Made by a program: the position numbers and the translations under genes. A stretch of DNA of 64,000 nt, taken from Candidatus Woesearchaeota archaeon. GTDB taxonomy: Archaea; Nanobdellota; Nanobdellia; Woesearchaeales; JAHWIC01. Location of the stretch: positions 2,938-66,937 of the forward strand of contig JAHWIC010000002.1 in the NCBI GenBank assembly GCA_019322805.1, given 5' to 3'. How positions within the stretch are numbered: position 1 is the first letter of the stretch; every line of letters begins with the position of its first letter. The notes beneath the pieces are model-generated. The model was given only the letters and a program-made list of their open reading frames with translations. It was not told the origin of the DNA and made no database searches. Positions 2,046 through 47,980 of this stretch are shown one piece after another.

Positions 2046-2822
2046 ATGCTGTTGAAAAAGAAAGAGTTTCCTGAAGAAGATGAGATTGTAATGTGCACAG
2101 TCACTAAGATACATTTCCATTCTGTTTTTGTTAATCTGGATGAATATGGTAGAACAGGGCTTATCCATATCTCTGAGGTTTCTCCAGGAAGAATAAGAAA
2201 CATAAGAGATTATGTTGTGGAAGGAAAGAAGGTAGTCTGCAAGGTTTTAAGGATTGATGAAGAAAAAGGGCACATTGATTTATCGTTGAGGAGGGTTAGT
2301 GAAGGCCAGAAAAGAAAAAAGGCAAATGAGATTAAACAAGAACAAAAGGCTGAGAAGATAATTGAGTTTGTTGCTAAAAACCTAAAGATTAATCCAGTAC
2401 AGCTTTATAATCAACTATCCGAGAAGATTCTAAAAAAGTATCCCAGTATTTACCCTGCATTTGAAGAAAGTGTCAAGAATAATAAGCTTTTGAAGGAGCT
2501 GGACATTGCTGATAAGATAGCAAAACCATTAACCGAATCTATAAAACAAAGGATTAAGGAGGCAGAGGTGCAGATTGGAGGAGAGCTTACTCTTATTAGT
2601 TACGCTTCTAATGGCATTGAAATTATCAAAGAAGCATTAAAAAAAGCATCTGATGTCGACAAAAGCATAAGTATAAGCTATGAAGGCGGCGGAAAATACA
2701 AGATAATGGTTAAGGCCCCTGATTACAAAAAGGCTGAGAAGATGCTCGATGCTGCTACTAAGAATGCTCTAAAGTTTGTAAACAAACATGACAGCGAAGG
2801 AAGCTTTGTCAGGGCAGAATGA
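2046..2822 (+). CDS. eif2a: Translation initiation factor 2 alpha subunit (aIF2-alpha)
   Basis: S1-domain motif GLIHISEVSPGRIRNIRDYVVEGKKVVCKVLRID and length/architecture of aIF2alpha. It lies between S27e and Nop10. Confidence 0.85.
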   Translation: MLLKKKEFPEEDEIVMCTVTKIHFHSVFVNLDEYGRTGLIHISEVSPGRIRNIRDYVVEGKKVVCKVLRIDEEKGHIDLSLRRVSEGQKRKKANEIKQEQKAEKIIEFVAKNLKINPVQLYNQLSEKILKKYPSIYPAFEESVKNNKLLKELDIADKIAKPLTESIKQRIKEAEVQIGGELTLISYASNGIEIIKEALKKASDVDKSISISYEGGGKYKIMVKAPDYKKAEKMLDAATKNALKFVNKHDSEGSFVRAE

Positions 2823-2995
2823 GACATATATTAAAGTGCATTGACTGCAAGACCTACACTATGAGGAAGAAATGTCCCAGCTGTGATAAAGGAACTGTAT
2901 CATCAAAGCCGGCAAAGTTCAGCCCAAAAGATCCTTATGGTGATTATAGAAGAAAGGCAAAGAAGGAATCGCTAATAAAAGAGGGGTTATTATGA
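2819..2995 (+). CDS. nop10: H/ACA ribonucleoprotein subunit Nop10
   Basis: Unlisted 58-aa ORF MRHILKCIDCKTYTMRKKCPSCDKGTVSSKPAKFSPKDPYGDYRRKAKKESLIKEGLL. The Cys4 ribbon plus FSP.DPYG.YRR motif is diagnostic of Nop10. The ATG overlaps the aIF2alpha stop and the stop overlaps the PAC2 start (ATGA couplings). The aIF2alpha-Nop10 neighbourhood is conserved in archaea. Confidence 0.8.
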   Translation: MRHILKCIDCKTYTMRKKCPSCDKGTVSSKPAKFSPKDPYGDYRRKAKKESLIKEGLL

Positions 2996-3786
2996 GCACG
3001 TGGAAGTTTGAGCAGGTTGGGACTAAACCAAAATTAAGGAATCCAATTCTTGTAGAGGGGTTGCCAGGCATTGGAAATGTTGGCAAGGTTGCTGTTGACT
3101 TTTTAATAGACGAGCTAAAGGCAAAGAAGATTTATGATATCAGTTCATATACATTTCCCCATTCTGTTTTTGTTAACGAAAAAAACCTTGTTGAGCTGCC
3201 TAAGATAGAGGTGTTTTACAAAAAGTTTGGAAATAAAAAGAATGACATATTATTCCTTGCAGGAGACATACAGCCTATTGATGAAGTAAGCTCATATGAG
3301 TTCTCTGACAAGATGCTTGACTTGCTTGAGAAATTCGGCGGGAAAGAGGTTATAACCCTCGGAGGAATTGGCTTATCTGATGTGCCTAAGCAGCCAAAGC
3401 TGTTTTGTACAGGGAATTCTAAACAGATAATTGAAAAATATAAGAATGGAGCTAATGAGAAGCTTTACGGTGTTGTTGGCCCTATTGTAGGCGTTACTGG
3501 ATTGTTGGTAGGCATGGCTTCAAAAAGGAAGATGAATGCAATTGCATTCCTGGCTGAAACTTATGGCCATCCGATGTATCTGGGCATAAAAGGAGCAAGA
3601 GAGATACTTAAGATACTTAATAAGAACCTTAATCTTAAAATTAATATCAAAAAGCTCGACGAGGAAATCAAGGAAGTTGAGACAGAGATTGTTAAAAGAA
3701 GCGGTGAGCTGGCAAAGGTTGCCAAGCAGACTGCATTGAAGAAACTGCAGAGTAAAATCGGGAAGGAAACGAGTTATATTGGATAA
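2992..3786 (+). CDS. PAC2-family proteasome assembly chaperone-like protein (archaeal PbaA/PbaB-like)
   Basis: LVEGLPGIGNVGKVAVDFLI motif typical of PAC2/DUF75. This family is conserved immediately downstream of Nop10 in archaea. Confidence 0.6.
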   Translation: MSTWKFEQVGTKPKLRNPILVEGLPGIGNVGKVAVDFLIDELKAKKIYDISSYTFPHSVFVNEKNLVELPKIEVFYKKFGNKKNDILFLAGDIQPIDEVSSYEFSDKMLDLLEKFGGKEVITLGGIGLSDVPKQPKLFCTGNSKQIIEKYKNGANEKLYGVVGPIVGVTGLLVGMASKRKMNAIAFLAETYGHPMYLGIKGAREILKILNKNLNLKINIKKLDEEIKEVETEIVKRSGELAKVAKQTALKKLQSKIGKETSYIG

Positions 3787-4035
3787 TCAATTTTAAAAGA
3801 TATCATTATCAAAAATATCAATAGAAAGAAAATAATTCTGAGTTTTGCTTTCTTCCTTTGTTTAAAGCAAAACTCGTCTTATTCTATTTCTTAAAGAACC
3901 AGAATAAGATGAAAATTCCCTTATCCTAGTTGTGAAAGGAATTTTCGGAATTAATTGTTATTAAATGATGATTTAATGTTGATAAAAAGAAACAAGCGCA
4001 CAACTAGTTGTGATTCCTGAAAGTGCGCCCAATGA
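3787..4035 (+). repeat. Structured intergenic repeat, copy 1. It begins at the PAC2 stop codon.
   Basis: Hairpin 1 spans 3840-3875: gagttttgcttt/aaagcaaaactc, 12 bp. Hairpin 2 spans 3911-3946: gaaaattcc.../...ggaattttc. The conserved tail is gttgtgaaaggaatt..attgttattaaat ... acaactagtt..ctgaaagt. It is ~85% identical to copy 2 (28400-28645) and related to copies 3 and 4. Confidence 0.8.
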
Positions 4036-25965: not shown

Positions 25966-26313
25966 TTAGCGTTTTGAAGGGTCTATTAAAAATCCTTCCT
26001 TTAGTATATTTTGGCCAATCAAGCATCTGTATTTCATATGGCTCCTGTCAGCCAGGGTAAACTCTCCTTTTAGCTTTTTGTCAGCTAATTTCACTTCAGC
26101 ATTTATAACCGGCCTTAGTTTGTTGCCATGGGCTGATTTAACTAATTTTGACTTGATTACAGGCCCAAGCTTTAGTTTAGCAGCTAATTTTACATCCATT
26201 GAGCTTTTTGTAGCTCCTGTATCAATACGCGCCATGACACTCCTGCGCTTCTTTTTGCCGTATATTGTAACCTTCTCGCTAAGCCCGATTATTGTCTTAT
26301 CCTTGTGTTCCAT
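25966..26313 (-). CDS. Retropepsin-like aspartic protease domain protein (RimK-associated, COG4067-like)
   Basis: RIDTGATKSSM D-T-G-A motif. 115 aa and immediately upstream of RimK, as is typical. Confidence 0.6.
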   Translation of the reverse strand: MEHKDKTIIGLSEKVTIYGKKKRRSVMARIDTGATKSSMDVKLAAKLKLGPVIKSKLVKSAHGNKLRPVINAEVKLADKKLKGEFTLADRSHMKYRCLIGQNILKEGFLIDPSKR

Positions 26314-26387: not shown

Positions 26388-26566
26388 AAAAAATCCACCC
26401 ACTCACGGCAGCCGTCGCCACTACGTGGCTCGCTCGCCAGCCAGCGAAATGTGAGCGAGTTCGCGAGCTCACTCGCAGGTCGCTGGCGCGTCCCCAGGAT
26501 TTGCAAAGTGAGGCTTGCTCGCTTTGCTCGCAAGCCATTCGCCGGCGCCGTGGATGGATTTTTTCT
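26388..26566. other. GC-rich (~65% GC) highly structured ~180-nt island with 15-nt imperfect terminal inverted repeats; candidate structured ncRNA or MITE
   Basis: Termini aaaaaatccacccac / gtggatggatttttt. Internal stems include cgccagc/gctggcg, gtgagc/gctcac and ggcttgc/gcaagcc. Contains ccaggatttgcaaagt, which resembles the 3' ends of this genome's tRNA T-loop introns. It starts 7 nt after the stop of the minus-strand aminopeptidase gene. ORF 26339..26533 is probably spurious. Confidence 0.4.
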
Positions 26567-26572
26567 TATGCC

Positions 26573-27646
26573 CTATACTACCAACTTTTCACCATCAACA
26601 TAAATAGATGGGTTTCTAAATATCTGGTCAAGGTGGATTATTGCGTAGATTGTTCCGCCAAACCAGTAATTTGAGCCTAATGCAAAGTGGGCAGTACCAA
26701 GGACCTTCTCATCAATAATGGTTGCTCCAACAATCCTTGCATTTGGATTAAGGCCGATACCAAACTCTCCAACACGTCTAATGCCCCAGGGGTGCTTTGC
26801 TTTTGCCTCTGCCCAGTCCAAGGTTAATTTTAATGCGTCAGCTTCCTTGTCCCCGTCTATCTCAACAACCTTGCCTTTTTCTACTATTAAAGTGATGGGG
26901 TGTTTTACCAGCGTAGAGCCTTCTTTATGTGACGACGAGGCATCTATGACCATTTTTCCAGATACATATTTCTTCCCATAAGGAGGGATATAAACTTCCC
27001 CAGCTGGTATGTTGCCACCTGTAGCTGGTTTTTTGTAATCACCATCATTCTTTACAGCCTTCTTACTTTTAATATTCATATAGAAGTCTGTTCCCTTCGG
27101 AGATGTTACATGCAGTTCCTTGCCATCATCAAGTATTTGTTTTATTTGTTCTGATCTTTCCTGCAGAGCCTTATAATCAATATTGATGGAGTTTGCTACT
27201 AGAGAAAATCTATCATTAGTCAGCCTGCCTATTTTCGGGGTTGATACAAACCTATGGCCGTGAGATTTCACAAATTTTCTATAACTTTTTCCAAGGTCTT
27301 TTATTGAACCAAGCCTGTTTGAGAGGTTGAGAATTATTATGTTGCCTTCTTTCAAATTCTCCAAAGAATCTATAATATTTTCGTCTGCATCGTCACCTTT
27401 GGTTTTAGGCTTTTGTATTATCAAATTTGCATTTAAACCAAGTTCTCTTGCAGCAACATAATAGCTAGTTGCCATTAATGCAGCAATGCGCCTGCCTTCA
27501 TAGCCTTCATCACCTACAATAAGAACCTCTTCTTTCTTTGCATTAAGGCATTCTGTTAACACCCTTTTGAAAATATGTGAATGAGATTTAGCAGAATCTA
27601 TCAGATTGTATTTTTCCAATAATTTTAGTGTTGTTCTTGGATGCAA
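26573..27646 (-). CDS. M29-family aminopeptidase (AmpS/PepS-like)
   Basis: GGNIPAGEVYIPP and LGTAHFALG motifs of thermophilic aminopeptidase M29. Confidence 0.7.
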   Translation of the reverse strand: MHPRTTLKLLEKYNLIDSAKSHSHIFKRVLTECLNAKKEEVLIVGDEGYEGRRIAALMATSYYVAARELGLNANLIIQKPKTKGDDADENIIDSLENLKEGNIIILNLSNRLGSIKDLGKSYRKFVKSHGHRFVSTPKIGRLTNDRFSLVANSINIDYKALQERSEQIKQILDDGKELHVTSPKGTDFYMNIKSKKAVKNDGDYKKPATGGNIPAGEVYIPPYGKKYVSGKMVIDASSSHKEGSTLVKHPITLIVEKGKVVEIDGDKEADALKLTLDWAEAKAKHPWGIRRVGEFGIGLNPNARIVGATIIDEKVLGTAHFALGSNYWFGGTIYAIIHLDQIFRNPSIYVDGEKLVV

Positions 27647-27736: not shown

Positions 27737-28399
27737 ATGGAACTAAAAGGCATAAAAGGTAAGATACCAGCAGAATTATACAATATATTAGGGAAGGACA
27801 TCAAAGAACTCAGGTCATGCCAGGTAAAGGCTATTAAAACGGGGTTGTTGGAACGAGAGAACCTCCTGGTTTGCACTCCTACAGCTTCTGGAAAAACATT
27901 GATTGCTGAGTTGGCTGCTATAAGCTCTATACTGAAAGGCTCTGGAAAGGCTGTTTATATAGTTCCATTAAAGGCTCTTGCAAACGAGAAGTTCAGTGAC
28001 TTTAAGAAAAGGTACGGCAACCTTATTAGGGTTGCTTTATCCATAGGAGATATTGATTCTGCTGATCCTTACCTTGCTGATTATGACTTAATCATCACAA
28101 CCTCTGAAAAGCTTGACAGCCTTACAAGACATCATGCGCCATGGCTGAGCAGGATTGGAACTGTGATAGTAGATGAGATACACCTAATGAATGATCCTGG
28201 AAGAGGACCTACTCTTGAGATATTAATAACGATACTAAAGCAGCTATTAAAGCATGTACAAATTATTGGGTTATCAGCTACAATAGGAAATCCTGAGGAA
28301 TTAGCTGAATGGCTGGATGCCAGGCTGGTTATAGATAATTGGAGGCCAGTAAAGCTGCATAAGGGCATTTGTATGAGAGATGAAATTGAGTTCTATTAA
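27737..28399 (+). CDS. Truncated Ski2/Hel308-like DEAD/DEAH helicase (RecA1 domain only; probable gene fragment)
   Basis: Motif I TPTASGKT, Ia, II VIVDEIH and III SAT are present. The ORF stops after 220 aa with no RecA2 or C-terminal domains, and the stop is immediately followed by repeat copy 2. Confidence 0.6.
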   Translation: MELKGIKGKIPAELYNILGKDIKELRSCQVKAIKTGLLERENLLVCTPTASGKTLIAELAAISSILKGSGKAVYIVPLKALANEKFSDFKKRYGNLIRVALSIGDIDSADPYLADYDLIITTSEKLDSLTRHHAPWLSRIGTVIVDEIHLMNDPGRGPTLEILITILKQLLKHVQIIGLSATIGNPEELAEWLDARLVIDNWRPVKLHKGICMRDEIEFY

Positions 28400-32303: not shown

Positions 32304-32406
32304 GGGCTTGTGATCTAGTGGCTATGATGTCGCCCTTACAAGGCGAATATCCCCGGTTCGAGTTGTTTGAGGTTTTACCTTTAACATGAAATTCCGGGCA
32401 GGCCCA
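32304..32406 (+). tRNA. tRNA-Val (anticodon TAC) with a ~30-nt non-canonical intron in the T-loop
   Basis: Acceptor GGGCTTG/CAGGCCC. Anticodon arm TCGCC-CTTACAA-GGCGA. T-stem CCCGG...CCGGG interrupted after TTCGAGT by tgtttgaggttttacctttaacatgaaatt (32364-32393). Discriminator A, followed by TTTT. Confidence 0.7.
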
Positions 32407-32427
32407 TTTTTTTGTTGCTAGCCATAA

Positions 32428-32487
32428 ATTGGCTTCGCCAATTTAATTAAGAAAGCCATAAATCGACTTTGTCGATTTAATTTCACT
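32428..32487 (+). repeat. Tandem pair of ~29-nt hairpin units upstream of tRNA-Gly
   Basis: agccataaat-[aattggc ttc gccaatt]-taatt followed by agccataaat-[cgac ttt gtcg]-atttaatt. Each unit has an ATAAAT TATA-like motif plus a perfect hairpin. The second unit is positioned as the tRNA-Gly promoter. Confidence 0.5.
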
Positions 32488-32559
32488 GCGGTAGTAGTAT
32501 AGTGGTTAGTATACGGCGTTGCCAACGCTGTGACCTGGGTTCAAATCCCAGCTACCGCA
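32488..32559 (+). tRNA. tRNA-Gly (anticodon GCC), intron-less
   Basis: Acceptor GCGGTAG/CTACCGC. Anticodon arm CGGCG-TTGCCAA-CGCTG. T-arm CTGGG-TTCAAAT-CCCAG. Discriminator A. Confidence 0.85.
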
Positions 32560-32659
32560 TTTCTTATTGTCTTGTGGGCTTGACGAACGGTGAAATTAAA
32601 CGCGAAGCGTTTATGGCATTATCCGTGAGGAAACCCACGAAGGTGCCAGTCTGACTTCT

Positions 32660-32692
32660 CAGCTGCCTCGGGTTCAAATCCCAGCTACCACA
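32660..32692 (+). other. Partial duplicate of the tRNA-Gly 3' half (degenerate T-arm plus acceptor)
   Basis: gggttcaaatcccagctacc is identical to tRNA-Gly positions 50-69, but the T-stem is degenerate and no 5' half is detectable. It lies ~100 nt downstream of tRNA-Gly. Confidence 0.5.
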
Positions 32693-32710
32693 TATATAAT
32701 TCTTAGAAAC

Positions 32711-32720
32711 TTTTAAATAA
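32711..32720 (+). promoter_or_regulatory. TATA box for tRNA-Ile
   Basis: ttttaaataa lies 25 nt upstream of 32745. Confidence 0.45.
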
Positions 32721-32744
32721 AGAATTGTTTTCATCTATCTCTAT

Positions 32745-32872
32745 GAGTCCGTAGCTCAGTCTGGTTTAGAGCGCTGGTCTTATATGACTACGCTTTAATC
32801 AATCTAAGAGAGCCAGCGGTCTGGGGTTCAAATAGTAATGCTCAGCATTGCTTGGATGTCCCCGCGGACTCA
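32745..32872 (+). tRNA. tRNA-Ile (anticodon TAT) with two introns (anticodon loop 37/38 ~26 nt, and T-loop ~26 nt)
   Basis: Acceptor GAGTCCG/CGGACTC. D-arm GCTC..GAGC. Anticodon stem CTGGT/GCCAG with loop CTTATA|tgactacgctttaatcaatctaagag|A. T-arm TGGGG-TTCAAAT|agtaatgctcagcattgcttggatgt|CCCC-G. Discriminator A. Confidence 0.6.
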
Positions 32873-32906
32873 TAGGGCGGGCTGTAACAGCTTGCCCATT
32901 TTCAAT

Positions 32907-33051
32907 GCCCCTGTGGTGTAGTCCGGCCAATCATTCAGCCTTTTCGTGTTGGCAATCGTCCGACTCGGTGCGATTCCATCGAAAACAGGCTGGGACCTGG
33001 GTTCGAACGCCGTTAAGCGAAGCTTATGGCTTGAAAGTCCCGGCGGGGGCA
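32907..33051 (+). tRNA. tRNA-Glu (anticodon TTC) with two introns (anticodon loop ~40 nt, T-loop ~30 nt)
   Basis: Acceptor GCCCCTG/CGGGGGC. Anticodon stem CAGCC/GGCTG with loop TTTTCG|40-nt intron|A. T-arm CTGGG-TTCGAAC|gccgttaagcgaagcttatggcttgaaagt|CCCGG. Discriminator A. Confidence 0.65.
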
Positions 33052-33649: not shown

Positions 33650-35288
<1,639 letters not shown>

Positions 35289-35327
35289 TTATTTCAATTT
35301 TTCATGATCAGAAACTGGGCCCGTAGC

Positions 35328-35450
35328 TCAGCAGTAGAGCGCCGCCCTTGCATTATACGTTTATAGTATATAGTATACGAGCGAGGCGGAGGCCTCGGGT
35401 TCGAATATTCCAGGACCATTGGACTGGATTTGAAAGTCCCGACGGGTCCA
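35328..35450 (+). tRNA. tRNA-Ala (anticodon TGC) in the 16S-23S spacer, with two introns (anticodon loop and T-loop)
   Basis: Acceptor GGGCCCG/CGGGTCC. Anticodon stem CCGCC/GGCGG with loop CTTGCA|tatacgtttatagtatatagtatacgagcg|A. T-arm TCGGG-TTCGAAT|attccaggaccattggactggatttgaaagt|CCCGA. Discriminator A. Confidence 0.75.
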
Positions 35451-35571
35451 TCTTTTACCTTAGGTGCAGAATAATCAGATAATGCTTATTTTTCATTTGA
35501 ACCAATCAATGATTGTATTATCTTGGTTGGAAGGTTGAAATCATTTTAATGAAACCATGCATAGTTGGTAG

Positions 35572-38500
35572 TAATGCTATTAGGTGGATGACTAGGCTCA
35601 AACGCTGATGAAGGATGTGACAAGCTACATTATGCTCTGGCGAGTCGCACGTAGACTTTGAACCGGAGATTCCTGAATGAGACTTCTCATTAGATCCGTA
35701 AGGATCGGGAACGCAGGGAATTGAAACGTCTTAGTACCTGCAGGAAAAGAAATCAATTGAGATGCTGTTAGTAAAGGCGATTGAAGACAGCTCAAGGCAA
35801 ACTGAATCCTTTGTTGAAAGGCAAAGGAGATGTGGTGTTATAAGACCGCCTACATAGGTTTTCTCTTGGGAACCTGAAGTCCCTTGGAAAAAGGTACCTA
35901 AGAATGTGACAGTCATGTAAGGGTAACTGAGAAAGACCTTGGCGGTATCTTGAGTACCATTTGCTGGATACCAAATGGGAATTTGGGAGGCATCAACTTC
36001 CAACCTTAAATACGTTTTGAGTCCGATAGAGCATTAGTACAGTGATGGAAAGTTGAAAAGAACCCTTGATAGGAAGTAAAAAGAACCTGAAACCTAATAG
36101 CTATAGTAAGGTACTGCTCTTCGGAGCTGTACCGTACGTTTCGAATAACGTGCCAGGGAGTTTATCTAAGTGGCAAGGGTAATCCCTAAAGGAGTACCCG
36201 CAGGGAAACCAAAATGCTCGCAGCCTGCAAGGAGCGAGGTATGAAAGTGCCTAGAGTCACTTGGATATGACCCGAAGCCAGGCGATCTAACCCTGAGTAA
36301 GGTGAAACAAGGGTAAAACCTTGTGGAGGCCTGAAGAGGTTCTACGAGCAAGTGTTCTTCTAACTTGGGGCTAGGGGTGAAAAGCCAATCGAGCCTGGCG
36401 ATAGCTGGTTCCTACCAAAATTGGCCGTAGTCAAGTCCTAAGCGAGATAGCTAGAATGGTAGAGCTACGGATTGGGGATTTAGGTCTCGAAAGGGATCGG
36501 TCTCCTGTCCAACTCCGAATATGCTAGCGTTGTAGACCTTAGGAGACGGGGAGCCTGGGGTAAGCTTGGCTTCCAAGAGGGGAACAACCCAGACTACAGT
36601 TAAGGTCCCTAAATACTGACTAAGTGTTAAAGGGTGAAGAGTGTTCAAGGTCATAGACAGCGAGGAGGTTGGCTCAGAAGCAGCCACCCTTTAAAAAGTG
36701 CGTATACATTACGACGCTTTTAAGCGGCGTATGGCTCGCAAGACAGCTTACTTGTCAAGATCTTGGGCCTCTAAAATGGACGGGGCTAAGTCAGTTACCG
36801 ATACTGTAGACCACTCAAAAGAGTGCGTGGTAGGTAGGCGTTTTGGAAGGGCAGAAGCATTCTTGAAAAGGAATGTGAACCTTTCAAAAATGAGAATCCT
36901 GGCGGTAGTAGGATCTAAGCAGAGTGAGAATCTCTGCCACTGAAAGGGCAAGGGTTCCTTGACAATGTCAATCAGTCAAGGGTTAGTTGAACCTAACGGA
37001 GTCCATAAATTGGATACTCTGGAAAGAGCAAAAGGTTAATATTCCTTTACTATCCGAGTATACGTGGCAACACAAGTCTGGTTTCCGACTCTTTGGGATA
37101 GACCGACATAAACCTTCGTTTGTGTTAATAAGAATAAATCAGGGGAGTATCATAACGATGAGAACCTGATTAAATCTTAGAATAGTGGGTCGTATGATTC
37201 ATTCGGTTGATTCCTGGAGACCATGAAAAGGGAATCAGAAAAAATCTTGGATAATTATACCCAGAACCAGCACTGGTGCCCCTAGGTGAGAAACCTAAAG
37301 TGTGAAGGCATAACTTGATTGAGGGAATTCGGCAAATTAGTCCCGTACCTTCGGTATAAGGGATCCCTGCGATTGTGGCTTTTAGTTGCGATTGCAGGGC
37401 GTAGTGACTAAGGAGGTCCGACTGTTTAACAAAAACTTAACTGACTGCTAGCCTGCAAAGGTGTGTATAGTCAGTGAAGCCTGCCCAGTGCCAGTACTTT
37501 AAACTTGGTTCCAACTGAGCTAAGAGCTGGTATACGGCGGGAGTAACTATAACTCTCTTAAGGTAGCGTAATACCTTGTCGTTTGAATGACGACTTGCAT
37601 GAATGGCGCAACGAGATCTCCACTGTCCCCAATCAGGAGCCTCCGAACTCCCTTTCCTGGTGCAAAAGCCAGGGATCTCCAGTGGGAAGCGAAGACCCCG
37701 TGAAACTTTACTGTAGCTTATCATTGCGACGTGAGTTTTGTTGTATAGCGTAAGTGGGAGCTGCTAAGCTTAAGTCGTCAGGCTTAAGATAGGCGACGAT
37801 GTAACACCACTTTTCAGAATTTGCGTTGCTAACTTCGAAAGAAAGACATTGATAGGTGGACAGTTTGGCTGGGGTGGCACCCCGCTGAAATTGTATCAGC
37901 GGGGCCCAATGGTTGGCTCAATCCGGTCAGAAATCGGATGTCGAGTGCAAAGGCAAAAGCCAGCCTGACTGGATTCTTACTAAGATGGAATCCAGAAACG
38001 AAAGTTAGGCTTAGCGAACCTCTATGTCCTCCTTGATGGGGGCTAGAGATGACCAAAAAGTTACTCCGGGGATAACAGAGTTGTCGCGCCCGAGAGTTCA
38101 TAGAAAGCAGCGAGTCCTTCGCTGCTCTCAGGACAAATCGACGGCGCGGCTTGCTACATCGATGTCGGCTCTTCCTATCCTGGATGTGCAGAAGTATAAT
38201 TTGCTGGGCAAATTATGCTCAGTAACTTGTTACTGTATGCATCCAAGGGTGGGGGTGTTCACCCATTAAAAGGGATCGTGAGCTGGGTTCAGAACGCTGT
38301 GAGGCAGTTTGTTTGATATCTACTGGAGATGTTGATGTCTGAAGGGAAGGATCCTCTAGTACGAGAGGAACGAGGATTCGGCGCCTCTGGTTTACCGGTT
38401 ATCCGAAAGGGTAAGCTGGGCAGCTACGCGCCAAGGGATAAGAGCTGAAAGCATCTAAGCTCGAAACCCGCCTTGAAAATAGACATCTTAGGACACGAGC

Positions 38501-38605
38501 AAAATACTCGTTTAATGGAACTGATGTGTAAGTATAAAGCTTCGGCGATATATTCAGCATGCAGTTCCCAACAGTCCATTTTACCAACTATGTATGGTTT
38601 TTCAT
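35572..38605 (+). rRNA. 23S rRNA (ends approximate)
   Basis: 5' region GGTGGATGACTAGGCTCAAACGCTGATGAAGGATGTG. Sarcin-ricin, peptidyl-transferase and other conserved blocks are present (GATGTCGGCTCTTCCTATCCTGG; GGGATCGTGAGCTGGGTTCAGAACG; GCTGAAAGCATCTAAGC near 38440). Small AT-rich perfect-hairpin insertions occur, e.g. at 38190-38245. No 5S gene in the operon. Confidence 0.85.
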
Positions 38606-38725: not shown

Positions 38726-39145
38726 GTGGTGTTCTTTTACAGCATGGCTAGACTATTCAAGAATATGGAGATATACCAATTAAGCTATAACCTTGCAATA
38801 GATATTCATAGGTTATTGGACAAGTTCCCTGAGAAAGAAAAGGATAACTTAATATCTCAGATGAGAAGAGCAGTTACGTCTATTCCGTTGAATATTGCTG
38901 AGGGAAGCGTAAAAAAATCCTATAGAGAATTTCTTAATTTTTTAGGCTACTCTTATGGTTCTGCAAAAGAACTTGACGTTTTATTATCAATGTCAAAAGA
39001 TTTAAAATATATCACAGAGAAAGAATATGATGAGCTTTTTGGTAAGCTAGACAAACTTATGGCGAAACTTTTTGGTTTTATGAAGAATATTGAATCAAGG
39101 TTTGAAAATAAAAAGAAATTTTTTACAAAGTATAAAGGAAAATGA
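38726..39145 (+). CDS. Four-helix-bundle protein of the '23S rRNA intervening-sequence protein' family (PF05635-like)
   Basis: IYQLSYNLAIDIHRLLDKFPEKEKDNLISQMRRAVTSIPLNIAEGSVKKSYREFLNFLGYSYGSAKEL matches the family consensus (...FP.EE...L.SQ.RRAA.SI..NIAEG......EF..FL..A.GS..EL). It sits immediately 3' of the 23S gene. Confidence 0.65.
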   Translation: MVFFYSMARLFKNMEIYQLSYNLAIDIHRLLDKFPEKEKDNLISQMRRAVTSIPLNIAEGSVKKSYREFLNFLGYSYGSAKELDVLLSMSKDLKYITEKEYDELFGKLDKLMAKLFGFMKNIESRFENKKKFFTKYKGK

Positions 39146-40119
39146 TATGTTTAGGTATTGAAAGCACAGCTCACACCTTTGGTGTTGGAATCATTGACGA
39201 TAAAGGAAAGATACTAGCTGATGCTAGAAATAGCTATACAACAGAATCTGGTGGGATTCATCCTTCTCAAGCAAAGGAGCACCATGAGTTAGTTGCTGAC
39301 GAGGTTATTTACGAAGCTCTTAACCAAGCTAAGCTTGAACTTAAGGATATTAATTTGATTAGTTTTTCACAAGGTCCTGGTTTGCCACCTTGCCTTGTTG
39401 TTGGATTGCAGAAGGTGAAAGAGCTTTCTAAAAAAGCCCATAAGCCTGTTGTTGGTGTTAATCATTGTATTGCGCATCTTGAAATTGGAAATCTATTGAC
39501 TAATTCTAATGATCCTGTATTGCTATATGTGAGCGGAGCAAATACTCAGGTTATTGCTTACGACGGCGGCAAGTATAGAATATTTGGAGAGACTCTTGAT
39601 AAGGGTGTTGGTAATTTTCTTGATGCTTTTGCTCGTCATGCTGGAATGGGCTTTCCAGGCGGACCTAAGATATACGAGCTTGCACTTAAAGGCAAAGAAT
39701 ATGTTGAACTGCCTTATGTTGTAAAAGGAATGGATATTTCTGTAAGCGGTATTCTTACAAATGTAAAACAAAAGTTTGATTCTAAAAAGTACAAGTTAGA
39801 GGATTTAGCATATTCTATTCAGGAAACCGTTTTTGCAATGCTTGTTGAGGTTGCTGAGCGTGCTATGGCACACTGCGAAAAAACAGAGCTTTTGCTTGGT
39901 GGTGGAGTTGCTTGCAATAAAAGATTGCAGGAGATGTGTGAGAAGATGTGTAAGGATAGAGGCGCTAGATTATTTGTTCCTGAAAACCGTGTTTTAACTG
40001 ATAATGCAATAATGATTGCTTGGCAGGGTATTCTCGAGCAGAAGAAACGCGAGCCACTTGATAAGATTGATATTCTGCCAAATTGGCGTACTGATGATGT
40101 TAAGGTTGATTGGAGATAA
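39142..40119 (+). CDS. kae1: tRNA N6-adenosine threonylcarbamoyltransferase Kae1 (KEOPS catalytic subunit)
   Basis: MICLGIESTAHTFGVGII...GVNHCIAHLEIG...LLGGGVACNKRL, full-length Kae1/TsaD. Confidence 0.9.
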   Translation: MICLGIESTAHTFGVGIIDDKGKILADARNSYTTESGGIHPSQAKEHHELVADEVIYEALNQAKLELKDINLISFSQGPGLPPCLVVGLQKVKELSKKAHKPVVGVNHCIAHLEIGNLLTNSNDPVLLYVSGANTQVIAYDGGKYRIFGETLDKGVGNFLDAFARHAGMGFPGGPKIYELALKGKEYVELPYVVKGMDISVSGILTNVKQKFDSKKYKLEDLAYSIQETVFAMLVEVAERAMAHCEKTELLLGGGVACNKRLQEMCEKMCKDRGARLFVPENRVLTDNAIMIAWQGILEQKKREPLDKIDILPNWRTDDVKVDWR

Positions 40120-46657: not shown

Positions 46658-46797
46658 TAGCGGGGAATGGACTCTCAAATCCTGAGGGATTTGTGGTCTC
46701 CCTCTGGGATATTTGAACCATCGACCTGAGGGTCTCTCTGCTTAAGCATATGAGCCCTCCGGGCACTCCTGACTGCCCTACCCCGCTGTAAGGTCTG
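46658..46797 (-). tRNA. Initiator tRNA-Met (anticodon CAT, A1:U72 pair) with two introns (anticodon loop ~15 nt; T-loop ~40 nt)
   Basis: Minus-strand read: AGCGGGG-TA-GGGC-AGTCAGGAGT-GCCC-G-GAGGG-CTCATA|tgcttaagcagagag|A-CCCTC-AGGTC-GATGG-TTCAAAT|atcccagagggagaccacaaatccctcaggatttgagagt|CCATT-CCCCGCT-A. The A1:U72 pair is an archaeal initiator hallmark. It overlaps the spurious ORF 46641..47162. Confidence 0.7.
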
Positions 46798-47771: not shown

Positions 47772-47897
47772 ACGCCGCGGGGGAGACTTTCAAAAAGCAT
47801 GCCGAACGCTGCGCGCGGCATGCTGTTTTTGAACTCCCGTGCCCCGAAGGACAGAGGATTAGCAATCCTCCGCAATGGCCGGGCTATGCGACCGCGG
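47772..47897 (-). tRNA. tRNA-Ser (anticodon GCT) with long variable arm and a ~41-nt T-loop intron
   Basis: Minus-strand read: GCCGCGG-TC-GCAT-AGCCCGGCCA-TTGC-G-GAGGA-TTGCTAA-TCCTC-TGTCCTTCGGGGCAC (variable arm hairpin GTCC/GGGC)-GGGAG-TTCAAAA|acagcatgccgcgcgcagcgttcggcatgctttttgaaagt|CTCCC-CCGCGGC-G, then TTTT. Appears as a GC-rich island on the plus strand. ORF 47875..48057 is spurious. Confidence 0.75.
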
Positions 47898-47980
47898 CAT
47901 AGGATTTGTTATTTGTTATTTATATATAAATGTTGTTGATTTCATAATATTTAAATATCAGGATAAAAAGATTAGTACAT

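Follow-up and report, generated by a model that had tools for sequence, protein, structure and literature searches.

Contig JAHWIC010000002.1 of the Candidatus Woesearchaeota archaeon assembly GCA_019322805.1 was analyzed over a stretch of 64,000 nucleotides (nt), positions 2,938 to 66,937, which we refer to as the window. The window has a G+C content of 38% and contains an archaeal rRNA operon recognized by Rfam, a gene for Kae1/TsaD recognized by Pfam, and seven tRNA genes, six of which carry an insert in the T-loop (Table 1). In the unspliced DNA, tRNA-Gly(GCC) is the sole tRNA called by ARAGORN and by Rfam at the gathering score. The anticodon-intron option of ARAGORN gave nothing beyond tRNA-Gly on the raw window, and Rfam searches at E up to 1 added a weak 26-bit match on the unspliced tRNA-Ala gene and no other RNA family near the tRNA genes.

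The six interrupted genes became recognizable when the exons were set by hand, the inserts were deleted in silico and ARAGORN was rerun on the spliced sequences. All six then gave canonical cloverleafs whose T-loops regain 7 nt, in agreement with the blind pipeline described below. The spliced tRNA-Ala carries the G3:U70 identity pair, the tRNA-Met, which has A1:U72 and a run of three G-C pairs (GGG/CCC) in its anticodon stem, is of the initiator type (iMet), and the tRNA-Ser has a long variable arm and G73. The tRNA-Ile has the anticodon UAU, which also occurs in Nanoarchaeum and Korarchaeum. In total, the seven genes hold ten introns, six between nt 59 and nt 60 of the T-loop (59/60) and four within the anticodon loop, at 37/38; every non-canonical intron of the window sits at 59/60. 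An exhaustive scan of both strands for an intact or interrupted T arm with 7/7 acceptor pairing, which covered about 1 million variants and also permitted one further deletion plus an anticodon intron, recovered these seven tRNAs and no more. A preliminary description made from the sequence had stated that six of seven tRNAs carry T-loop inserts of 26–41 nt, that Ile, Glu, Ala and iMet additionally have 37/38 introns, and that only tRNA-Gly is intron-less; each of these statements holds, with coordinates accurate to 1–2 nt.

Table 1. Genes and introns of the window (59/60 and 37/38, intron positions; hBHBh', strict helix-bulge-helix-bulge-helix motif; H, its central helix; MFE, minimum free energy)
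Feature	Position	Strand	Remarks
tRNA-Val(TAC)	32304–32406	+	exons 32304–32362, 32393–32406; cloverleaf after splicing
TATA-like box of tRNA-Val	~29 nt upstream	+	tttttatata; T-run after the discriminator of the gene
Val T-loop intron, 59/60	32363–32392	+	30 nt; perfect hBHBh'; H UUCG/UGAA, bulges AGU, AUU; inner helix UGUU.GAGG/CCUU.AACA; strict motif 0.8 kcal/mol above local MFE
tRNA-Gly(GCC)	32487–32560	+	lone uninterrupted gene; ARAGORN and Rfam (68 bits)
tRNA-Ile(TAT)	32745–32872	+	exons 32745–32784, 32811–32832, 32859–32872; cloverleaf after splicing
Ile intron, 37/38	32785–32810	+	26 nt; H CUUA/UAAG
Ile T-loop intron, 59/60	32833–32858	+	26 nt; perfect hBHBh'; H UUCA/UGGA, bulges AAU, UGU; 8-bp inner helix; strict motif 1.2 kcal/mol above local MFE
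tRNA-Glu(TTC)	32907–33051	+	exons 32907–32946, 32987–33007, 33038–33051; cloverleaf after splicing
Glu intron, 37/38	32947–32986	+	40 nt; from virtual splicing
Glu T-loop intron, 59/60	33008–33037	+	30 nt; H UUCG/UGAA, bulges AAC, AGU; inner helix and H separated by an additional unpaired U; strict motif 1.0 kcal/mol above local MFE
16S rRNA gene	33650–35286		Rfam
16S rRNA intron	34412–34515	+	104 nt; bulge-helix-bulge; inside the universal sequence GGATTAGAT joined to ACCCGAGTAGTCC
tRNA-Ala(TGC)	35317–35450	+	16S-23S spacer; exons 35317–35352, 35384–35405, 35437–35450; cloverleaf after splicing
Ala intron, 37/38	35353–35383	+	31 nt; from virtual splicing
Ala T-loop intron, 59/60	35406–35436	+	31 nt; H UUCG/UGAA, 3' bulge AGU, looser 5' side; 6-bp alternative helix competes; strict motif 2.7 kcal/mol above local MFE
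23S rRNA gene	35561–38591		Rfam
Kae1/TsaD	39142–40119		Pfam
iMet(CAT)	46658–46787	-	exons 46787–46749, 46733–46712, 46671–46658; cloverleaf after splicing
iMet intron, 37/38	46734–46748	-	15 nt; from virtual splicing
iMet T-loop intron, 59/60	46672–46711	-	40 nt; H UUCA/UGAG, bulges AAU, AGU; inner helix and H separated by an additional unpaired U
tRNA-Ser(GCT)	47773–47898	-	exons 47898–47828, 47786–47773; cloverleaf after splicing
Ser T-loop intron, 59/60	47787–47827	-	41 nt; H UUCA/UGAA, 3' bulge AGU, inner helix of 9 bp or more; 7-bp alternative helix competes; strict motif 3.8 kcal/mol above local MFE

For comparison, we collected 80 relative loci around Kae1 from genomes labeled Candidatus Woesearchaeota, Nanoarchaeota or Nanoarchaeia (numbered L002, L009 and so on), which together with the window amount to 1.18 Mb. 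The best matches of the window Kae1 lie in genomes so labeled, which places the organism among the Woesearchaeota of the DPANN group. These sequences were searched with a blind pipeline that begins with G53-TTCRA, takes a 5/5 complementary 3' T-stem 12–89 nt further on, and ends with 7/7 acceptor pairing, a virtual splice between nt 59 and nt 60 and an ARAGORN tRNA spanning the junction. The pipeline gave 22 matches in the real DNA and none in a decoy consisting of the same 1.18 Mb reversed, which excludes a chance origin of the T-loop inserts. They are not an assembly artifact either. The Val-Gly-Ile-Glu cluster is present in two independent metagenome assemblies, JGI 3300027901 (99.4% identity) and ENA ERZ27275860 (99.9%), with zero differences in the introns of the cluster in both. 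The presence of the inserts is therefore confirmed.

The 22 T-loop introns of the window and its relatives share a common anatomy. Nucleotides 54–57 of the T-loop (UUCG or UUCA) pair with four intron bases located 3 nt upstream of the 3' T-stem; the intron strand of this central helix is UGAA, UGGA or UGAG in the window, and CGAA also occurs in the full set. The helix is flanked by two 3-nt bulges. The first base of the intron together with nt 58 and nt 59 makes up the 5' bulge, and the 3' bulge is composed of the final two bases of the intron and the T destined to be nt 60, while the remaining intron forms a hairpin that begins right after the 5' bulge. All four pairs are present in each of the six window introns and in 19 of the 22 overall, with three of four pairs in the other three. 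The blind pipeline did not filter for the central helix, and when the pairing was scored in other registers, 4/4 pairs were found in at most 2 of the 22 introns at any of 11 other offsets. This arrangement is that of a motif of the bulge-helix-bulge (BHB) type, and it makes the T arm a match of the 37/38 anticodon arm: both have a 5-bp stem and a 7-nt loop cut after the sixth loop base.

The same anatomy refines two points of the preliminary description. The shared 3' ends of the inserts noted there are real: they are of the ttgaaag type in ggatttgaaagT (Ala), ggatttgagagT (iMet), cttgaaagT (Glu) and tttgaaagT (Ser), with the variants catgaaatT (Val) and cttggatgT (Ile). The proposed pairing of these ends with the T-loop is indeed the BHB central helix, but 4 bp of it belong to the motif rather than the 6–7 bp of TTCGAA/TTTGAA, which would absorb the 5' bulge and hence represents a competing fold. 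Likewise, the insertion point had been located near 59/60, and this is retained, whereas BHB geometry puts the junction after nt 59 and not after the complete 7-nt loop. The two descriptions lead to an identical mature sequence for Val, Ile, Ala and iMet. The predicted spliced junctions read GGTTCGAA joined to TCCCGA in Ala and GGTTCAAA joined to TCTCCC in Ser.

As modeled, most of the window T-loop motifs are strict or near-strict 3-4-3 hBHBh' motifs and not relaxed helix-bulge-helix (hBH) structures, two possibilities that had been left side by side when BHB prediction was first suggested. The motif is perfect in Val and Ile, contains a single additional unpaired base in Glu and iMet, and is looser on the 5' side in Ala and Ser. 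When the 3-4-3 motif was enforced, its energy lay 0.8–3.8 kcal/mol above the local MFE in all six window T-loop introns; for several 59/60 introns of the relatives, the strict motif is the MFE fold itself.

The T-loop introns vary between relatives while the surrounding tRNA exons are maintained. In the closest relative by Kae1, L002 (metagenome-assembled genome YT1_182, 91% identity), the tRNA-Ser(GCT) has near-identical exons and lacks the T-loop insert. Its T arm, GGGAG TTCAAAT CTCCC, equals the predicted 59/60 product of the window gene, whereas splicing at 60/61 would give TTCAAAA. The iMet of L002 (L002:9701–9828, minus strand) also has near-identical exons, with a compensatory change of G5:C68 to A5:U68 in the acceptor stem, and bears no intron at 37/38 or 59/60. 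Gapped alignment to the mature window sequence instead places inserts of 27 nt in its D-loop and 22 nt in its anticodon stem (~29/30); a brute-force double deletion with ARAGORN was too permissive on this gene, as its 14,712 "solutions" were uninformative. A 59/60 intron interrupts the spacer tRNA-Ala(TGC) of the window and of seven relatives (L009, L011, L012, L022, L025, L068 and L073), in which the hairpin sequences all differ and the helix-bulge layout is kept. The T-loop intron is absent from the spacer tRNA-Ala of L051, L074 and L037 (AR15 genome), and uninterrupted Val and Glu orthologs occur in L044, L067, L021, L022 and L027. Because the orthologs without an insert have a normal 7-nt T-loop, the insert is dispensable. 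Among the related loci, there are 16 tRNAs with a 59/60 intron and 27 ARAGORN-detected tRNAs with an uninterrupted T-loop, a rough ratio limited by the sensitivity of ARAGORN, so that about one-third of the detectable tRNA genes near Kae1 in the 80 genomes bear the intron. Exon-intron structure, motif, conservation and presence/absence polymorphism are all shown by these results. As a separate observation, a partial 5' duplicate of tRNA-Ala(CGC) (GGGCCTGTAGCTCAG...) lies at L026:4491–4577, just upstream of the complete gene, which carries a 59/60 intron; L024 has a similar fragment.

The window also contains a BHB intron in the 16S rRNA gene, with H = UUAG/CUAA, bulges AUA and CUA, and inner helix CGAG/CUCG. 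The insert is absent from L022, L051 and L074. L009 and L073 have other introns at the same site, where the exon sequence reads GGATTAGAT joined to ACCC, and their inner helices, CAAC/GTTG and CAAATC/GATTTG, differ from CGAG/CTCG of the window in a covarying manner. Such a covarying BHB intron suggests that the splicing machinery is used elsewhere in this genome. The 104-nt insert is also part of the reason why the 16S match spans 1637 nt against the 1478 positions of the model. Toward the 3' end of the 16S gene, at a site equivalent to window position 35159, L025 (~2616–3419) and L058 (~3213–4006) carry inserts of about 800 nt, which are probably larger rRNA introns.

Taking these results together, we infer that the T-loop inserts are very probably BHB introns that are spliced by proteins, with EndA, the tRNA splicing endonuclease, making the cuts and an RNA ligase sealing the exons. 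Before splicing, the 5-bp T-stem of the transcript would run on into the 4-bp helix between T-loop and intron. EndA would recognize the two bulges across this helix and cut after the second base of each, which it should be able to do given that the geometry of the T arm is that of the anticodon arm, and an RtcB-type ligase would join nt 59 to nt 60 and restore the 7-nt T-loop for the tRNA elbow. In the doubly interrupted precursors, the 37/38 and 59/60 motifs lie on separate arms and would form independently. A working tRNA has the T54-A58 pair and contacts between the D-loop and the T-loop. Since pairing of nt 54–57 with the intron is incompatible with both, elbow formation and T-loop modification, as well as use of the tRNA, would come after splicing. 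Self-splicing can be set aside, because inserts of 15–41 nt are far below the ribozyme core of at least ~200 nt of group I and group II introns, and no intron family matched over the window in Rfam at E up to 1.

Several observations weigh against this assignment. In Glu, Ala and Ser, the MFE fold extends the central helix to 5–7 bp with the 5' bulge lost or shifted, and the 6–7-bp fold is 1–4 kcal/mol more stable than the strict motif. The choice of 59/60 over 60/61 follows from the modeled motif geometry, to which the L002 junction adds a second line for Ser only. No gene for EndA or RtcB was seen in the window, which represents 64 kb of the genome, or in the related loci: a phmmer search with M. 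jannaschii EndA as the query (checked against PDB 1A79) found no EndA in either, and Pfam scans found neither a tRNA_int_endo nor an RtcB domain among 40 open reading frames (ORFs) of the window.

The competing fold raises the question of which enzyme is involved. The inserts may be introns that need an EndA of broad specificity (ε2, (αβ)2 or a loop-bearing α4), the motifs being relaxed hBH in vivo. This is a variant of the BHB intron assignment, so that its likelihood overlaps with that of the latter and is not to be added to it; we judge it slightly less probable than its converse. The predicted ground states of Ala, Ser and Glu, with a central helix of 5–7 bp and a distorted 5' bulge, point in this direction, as do the 37/38 introns of Glu and iMet, which are 5–7 kcal/mol from the strict motif, and the D-loop and anticodon-stem introns of relatives. 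In PMC5829648, DPANN α4 EndAs with an L3 loop are linked to more tRNA gene disruption. On the other hand, Val and Ile are perfect 3-4-3 motifs, the strict motif is the MFE in many 59/60 introns of the relatives, and a strict enzyme could in principle process the T-loop class. With motifs that are mostly strict, the motifs alone do not demand a broad-specificity enzyme.

That the interrupted genes are scars of insertion or pseudogenes in decay, with functional copies elsewhere in the genome, is very improbable. Our view is confined to 64 kb of the genome, and a tRNA-like fragment at 32573–32693 beside tRNA-Gly (see below) is an instance of tRNA debris, both of which would fit such decay. However, the exons are intact with all identity elements kept, the set includes the tRNA-Ala of the rRNA operon and the initiator tRNA, the introns are identical across independent assemblies, and the exons show compensatory changes between relatives. 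Genes of the same architecture are found again in Woesearchaeota with a Kae1 55–91% identical to that of the window. Moreover, small DPANN genomes normally have one gene per tRNA. Least probable of all is that the inserts are kept in the mature tRNA as an extra arm out of the T-loop, for although each insert is a stable hairpin on an intact T-stem, orthologs of close relatives lack it and have a normal 7-nt T-loop, the hairpin sequence is unconserved while the 4-bp helix with nt 54–57 and the 3-nt bulges are conserved, and the pairing of nt 54–57 with the insert clashes with T54-A58 and the contacts between D-loop and T-loop of the established structure.

Returning to the BHB introns, their sequences carry signs of turnover. 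An all-against-all comparison of 18 T-loop introns (153 pairs), from which the final six exon-constrained bases were omitted, ranked the window Ala and iMet introns as the most similar pair (z = 4.7, 0 of 300 shuffles), ahead of the L009 and L012 Ala introns, which are orthologous (z = 4.2). The window Ala and iMet introns are thus sequence relatives. This similarity and the different intron positions in L002 suggest rapid gain, loss and copying between genes, so intron turnover appears to be fast, with spread from one tRNA gene to another; the Thermoproteales have been proposed to show such behavior (cited in PMC4033280 and PMC3239211). One could go further and regard 59/60 in Woesearchaeales as a lineage-wide hot spot at which BHB introns are gained, lost and copied and for which an essentially strict α4-type EndA is sufficient, the site being favored because the T arm is a geometric copy of the anticodon arm. 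The presence of a 59/60 intron in about one-third of the genes, the differing Ser and iMet positions in L002 and the top-ranking Ala/iMet pair are the basis of this idea, which we consider possible but rather unlikely.

The tRNA genes of the window do not encode CCA, and a T-run directly follows every one of them. TATA-like boxes were seen by eye ~28–29 nt (box center) before nt 1 of Val, Gly, Ile, iMet and Ser, that is, upstream of 32304, 32487 and 32745 on the plus strand and of 46787 and 47898 on the minus strand. This near-fixed distance implies 5' leaders that are very short or missing altogether, which recalls the leaderless tRNAs of Nanoarchaeum equitans. A 34-nt gap, devoid of a TATA box, separates Glu from the preceding Ile gene, and the two are probably co-transcribed. 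A hairpin motif, CCATAAA-stem-TTY-stem'-TTTAAT, occurs in three copies around tRNA-Gly (32422–32447 and 32456–32481 on the plus strand, 32595–32616 on the minus strand), where 0.14 are expected by chance. The copy adjoining Gly has ATAAAT ~28 nt before nt 1, so that the Gly promoter probably lies within it. A short match to this motif is also seen in the Glu T-loop intron when it is read as its reverse complement (AGCCATAAGCTTCGCTTAACGG).

Between tRNA-Gly and tRNA-Ile lies the tRNA-like fragment mentioned above (32573–32693, plus strand). The 3' end of tRNA-Gly recurs in its last 20+ nt (GGGTTCAAATCCCAGCTACC, 88% over 32 nt), which are preceded by a stretch resembling a tRNA 3' half and a long hairpin, and it holds an inverted copy of the hairpin/TATA motif that is found twice upstream of Gly. 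When it was tested as a multi-intron tRNA, none of 6,669 deletion variants, including anticodon-intron variants, yielded a tRNA. In a test as a split or permuted tRNA, the window contained no partner acceptor strand or 5' half above the chance level. The relatives (L022) do not share the fragment, whose fold z-score is -1.2. It is probably a rearrangement or duplication scar and not a gene.

A further element of ~172 nt and 66% G+C is located at 26393–26565 (plus strand), between the ORFs 25966–26313 and 26573–27646. Its ends pair (AUCCACCCAC.../...GUGGAUGGAU), its fold z-score is -6.5 on the plus strand and -4.7 on the minus strand, and, as in the tRNA genes, it is preceded by a TATA-like TTAAATAAA (centered ~29 nt upstream) and trailed by a T-run. 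The stretch GGATTTGCAAAGT within it is similar to the 3' ends of the T-loop introns. A deletion scan of both strands gave no hidden tRNA, and Rfam gave no credible match at E up to 10; the element may represent a small RNA gene that is either undescribed or highly divergent. Among the protein-coding genes, the ORF 38726–39145 (plus strand) directly follows the 23S gene, just downstream and not inside it, and matches PF05635, the 23S rRNA-intervening sequence protein family (E = 1.6e-32). The ORF 27737–28399 (plus strand, 220 aa) has the N-terminal DEAD/ResIII helicase domain only and no helicase C-terminal domain, and this helicase gene may be split or truncated.

BHB motifs in the T-loop form a recognized class (PMC6379350, citing Marck and Grosjean 2003), and the closest parallel to the window is Candidatus Micrarchaeum acidiphilum ARMAN-2. 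In this organism, tRNA-Cys has an intron at 59/60 and tRNA-Pro has introns at 53/54 and 59/60, introns sit at positions that overlap with the major sites of insertion in other archaea, an isoleucine tRNA with anticodon UAU is present, and the 59/60 intron of tRNA-Cys was cleaved in vitro by the cognate ε2 EndA (PMC3239211). ARMAN-2 and the window thus share a DPANN affiliation, the T-loop site, short introns (13 nt up in ARMAN-2), the co-occurrence of 59/60 and 37/38 introns and tRNA-Ile(UAU). They differ in that the tRNA-Cys motif of ARMAN-2 is a relaxed hBH and its enzyme a three-unit ε2 EndA, whereas the window motifs are mostly strict or near-strict 3-4-3; disrupted genes make up 56% of the tRNA genes in ARMAN-2 and six of seven in the window. 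The mean intron density is 0.21 per gene in archaea and 0.84 in Thermoproteales, with a maximum of 71 introns in 46 genes (PMC8450103), and ten introns in seven genes, albeit a small sample, stand at the top of this published range. As far as they are described in the sources cited in PMC4033280 and PMC8450103 (Sugahara 2008, Fujishima 2010), the multi-intron genes of Thermoproteales (Pyrobaculum, Thermofilum, Caldivirga) resemble those of the window in having up to three BHB introns per gene, many of them non-canonical, in their comparable intron density and in evidence of copying between tRNA genes. These organisms, in contrast, are TACK hyperthermophiles with an (αβ)2 EndA and scattered intron positions, while all non-canonical introns of the window are at 59/60. 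The ectopic introns of nuclear tRNA genes in Cyanidioschyzon merolae (PMC3728597, PMC9602550) belong to a eukaryote with a different endonuclease and are unrelated by descent.

A marked rise of disrupted tRNA genes in DPANN lineages was reported by Kaneta et al. (2018), whose survey included Woesearchaeota RBG_13_36_6; the incomplete tRNA sets of DPANN are taken to imply undetected disrupted genes, and proportions are given (PMC5829648), against the positions and motif anatomy provided by the present window. The 59/60 site and the heavy disruption of DPANN tRNA genes are therefore already published (PMC5829648, PMC3239211, PMC6379350). The lineage is Woesearchaeota, and the phylogenetic implication raised in the preliminary description is smaller than suggested there. 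Our results go modestly beyond the literature consulted in that all non-canonical introns of the window are at 59/60 and the motifs are mostly strict.

The locus provides a clean comparative set for the origin and movement of BHB introns, as near relatives have the same gene with different intron positions and related introns in different genes. It bears on whether a non-canonical position needs a broad-specificity endonuclease, without overturning the current understanding. If 59/60 is a hot spot served by a strict α4-type enzyme, non-canonical position would be uncoupled from relaxed specificity, two properties that are linked in the current co-evolution model. For annotation, the consequence is more immediate. 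ARAGORN and the Rfam tRNA model miss six of the seven tRNA genes in the window, and because standard annotation misses genes interrupted at 59/60, tRNA counts and completeness of Woesearchaeota would be badly understated unless these introns are modeled.

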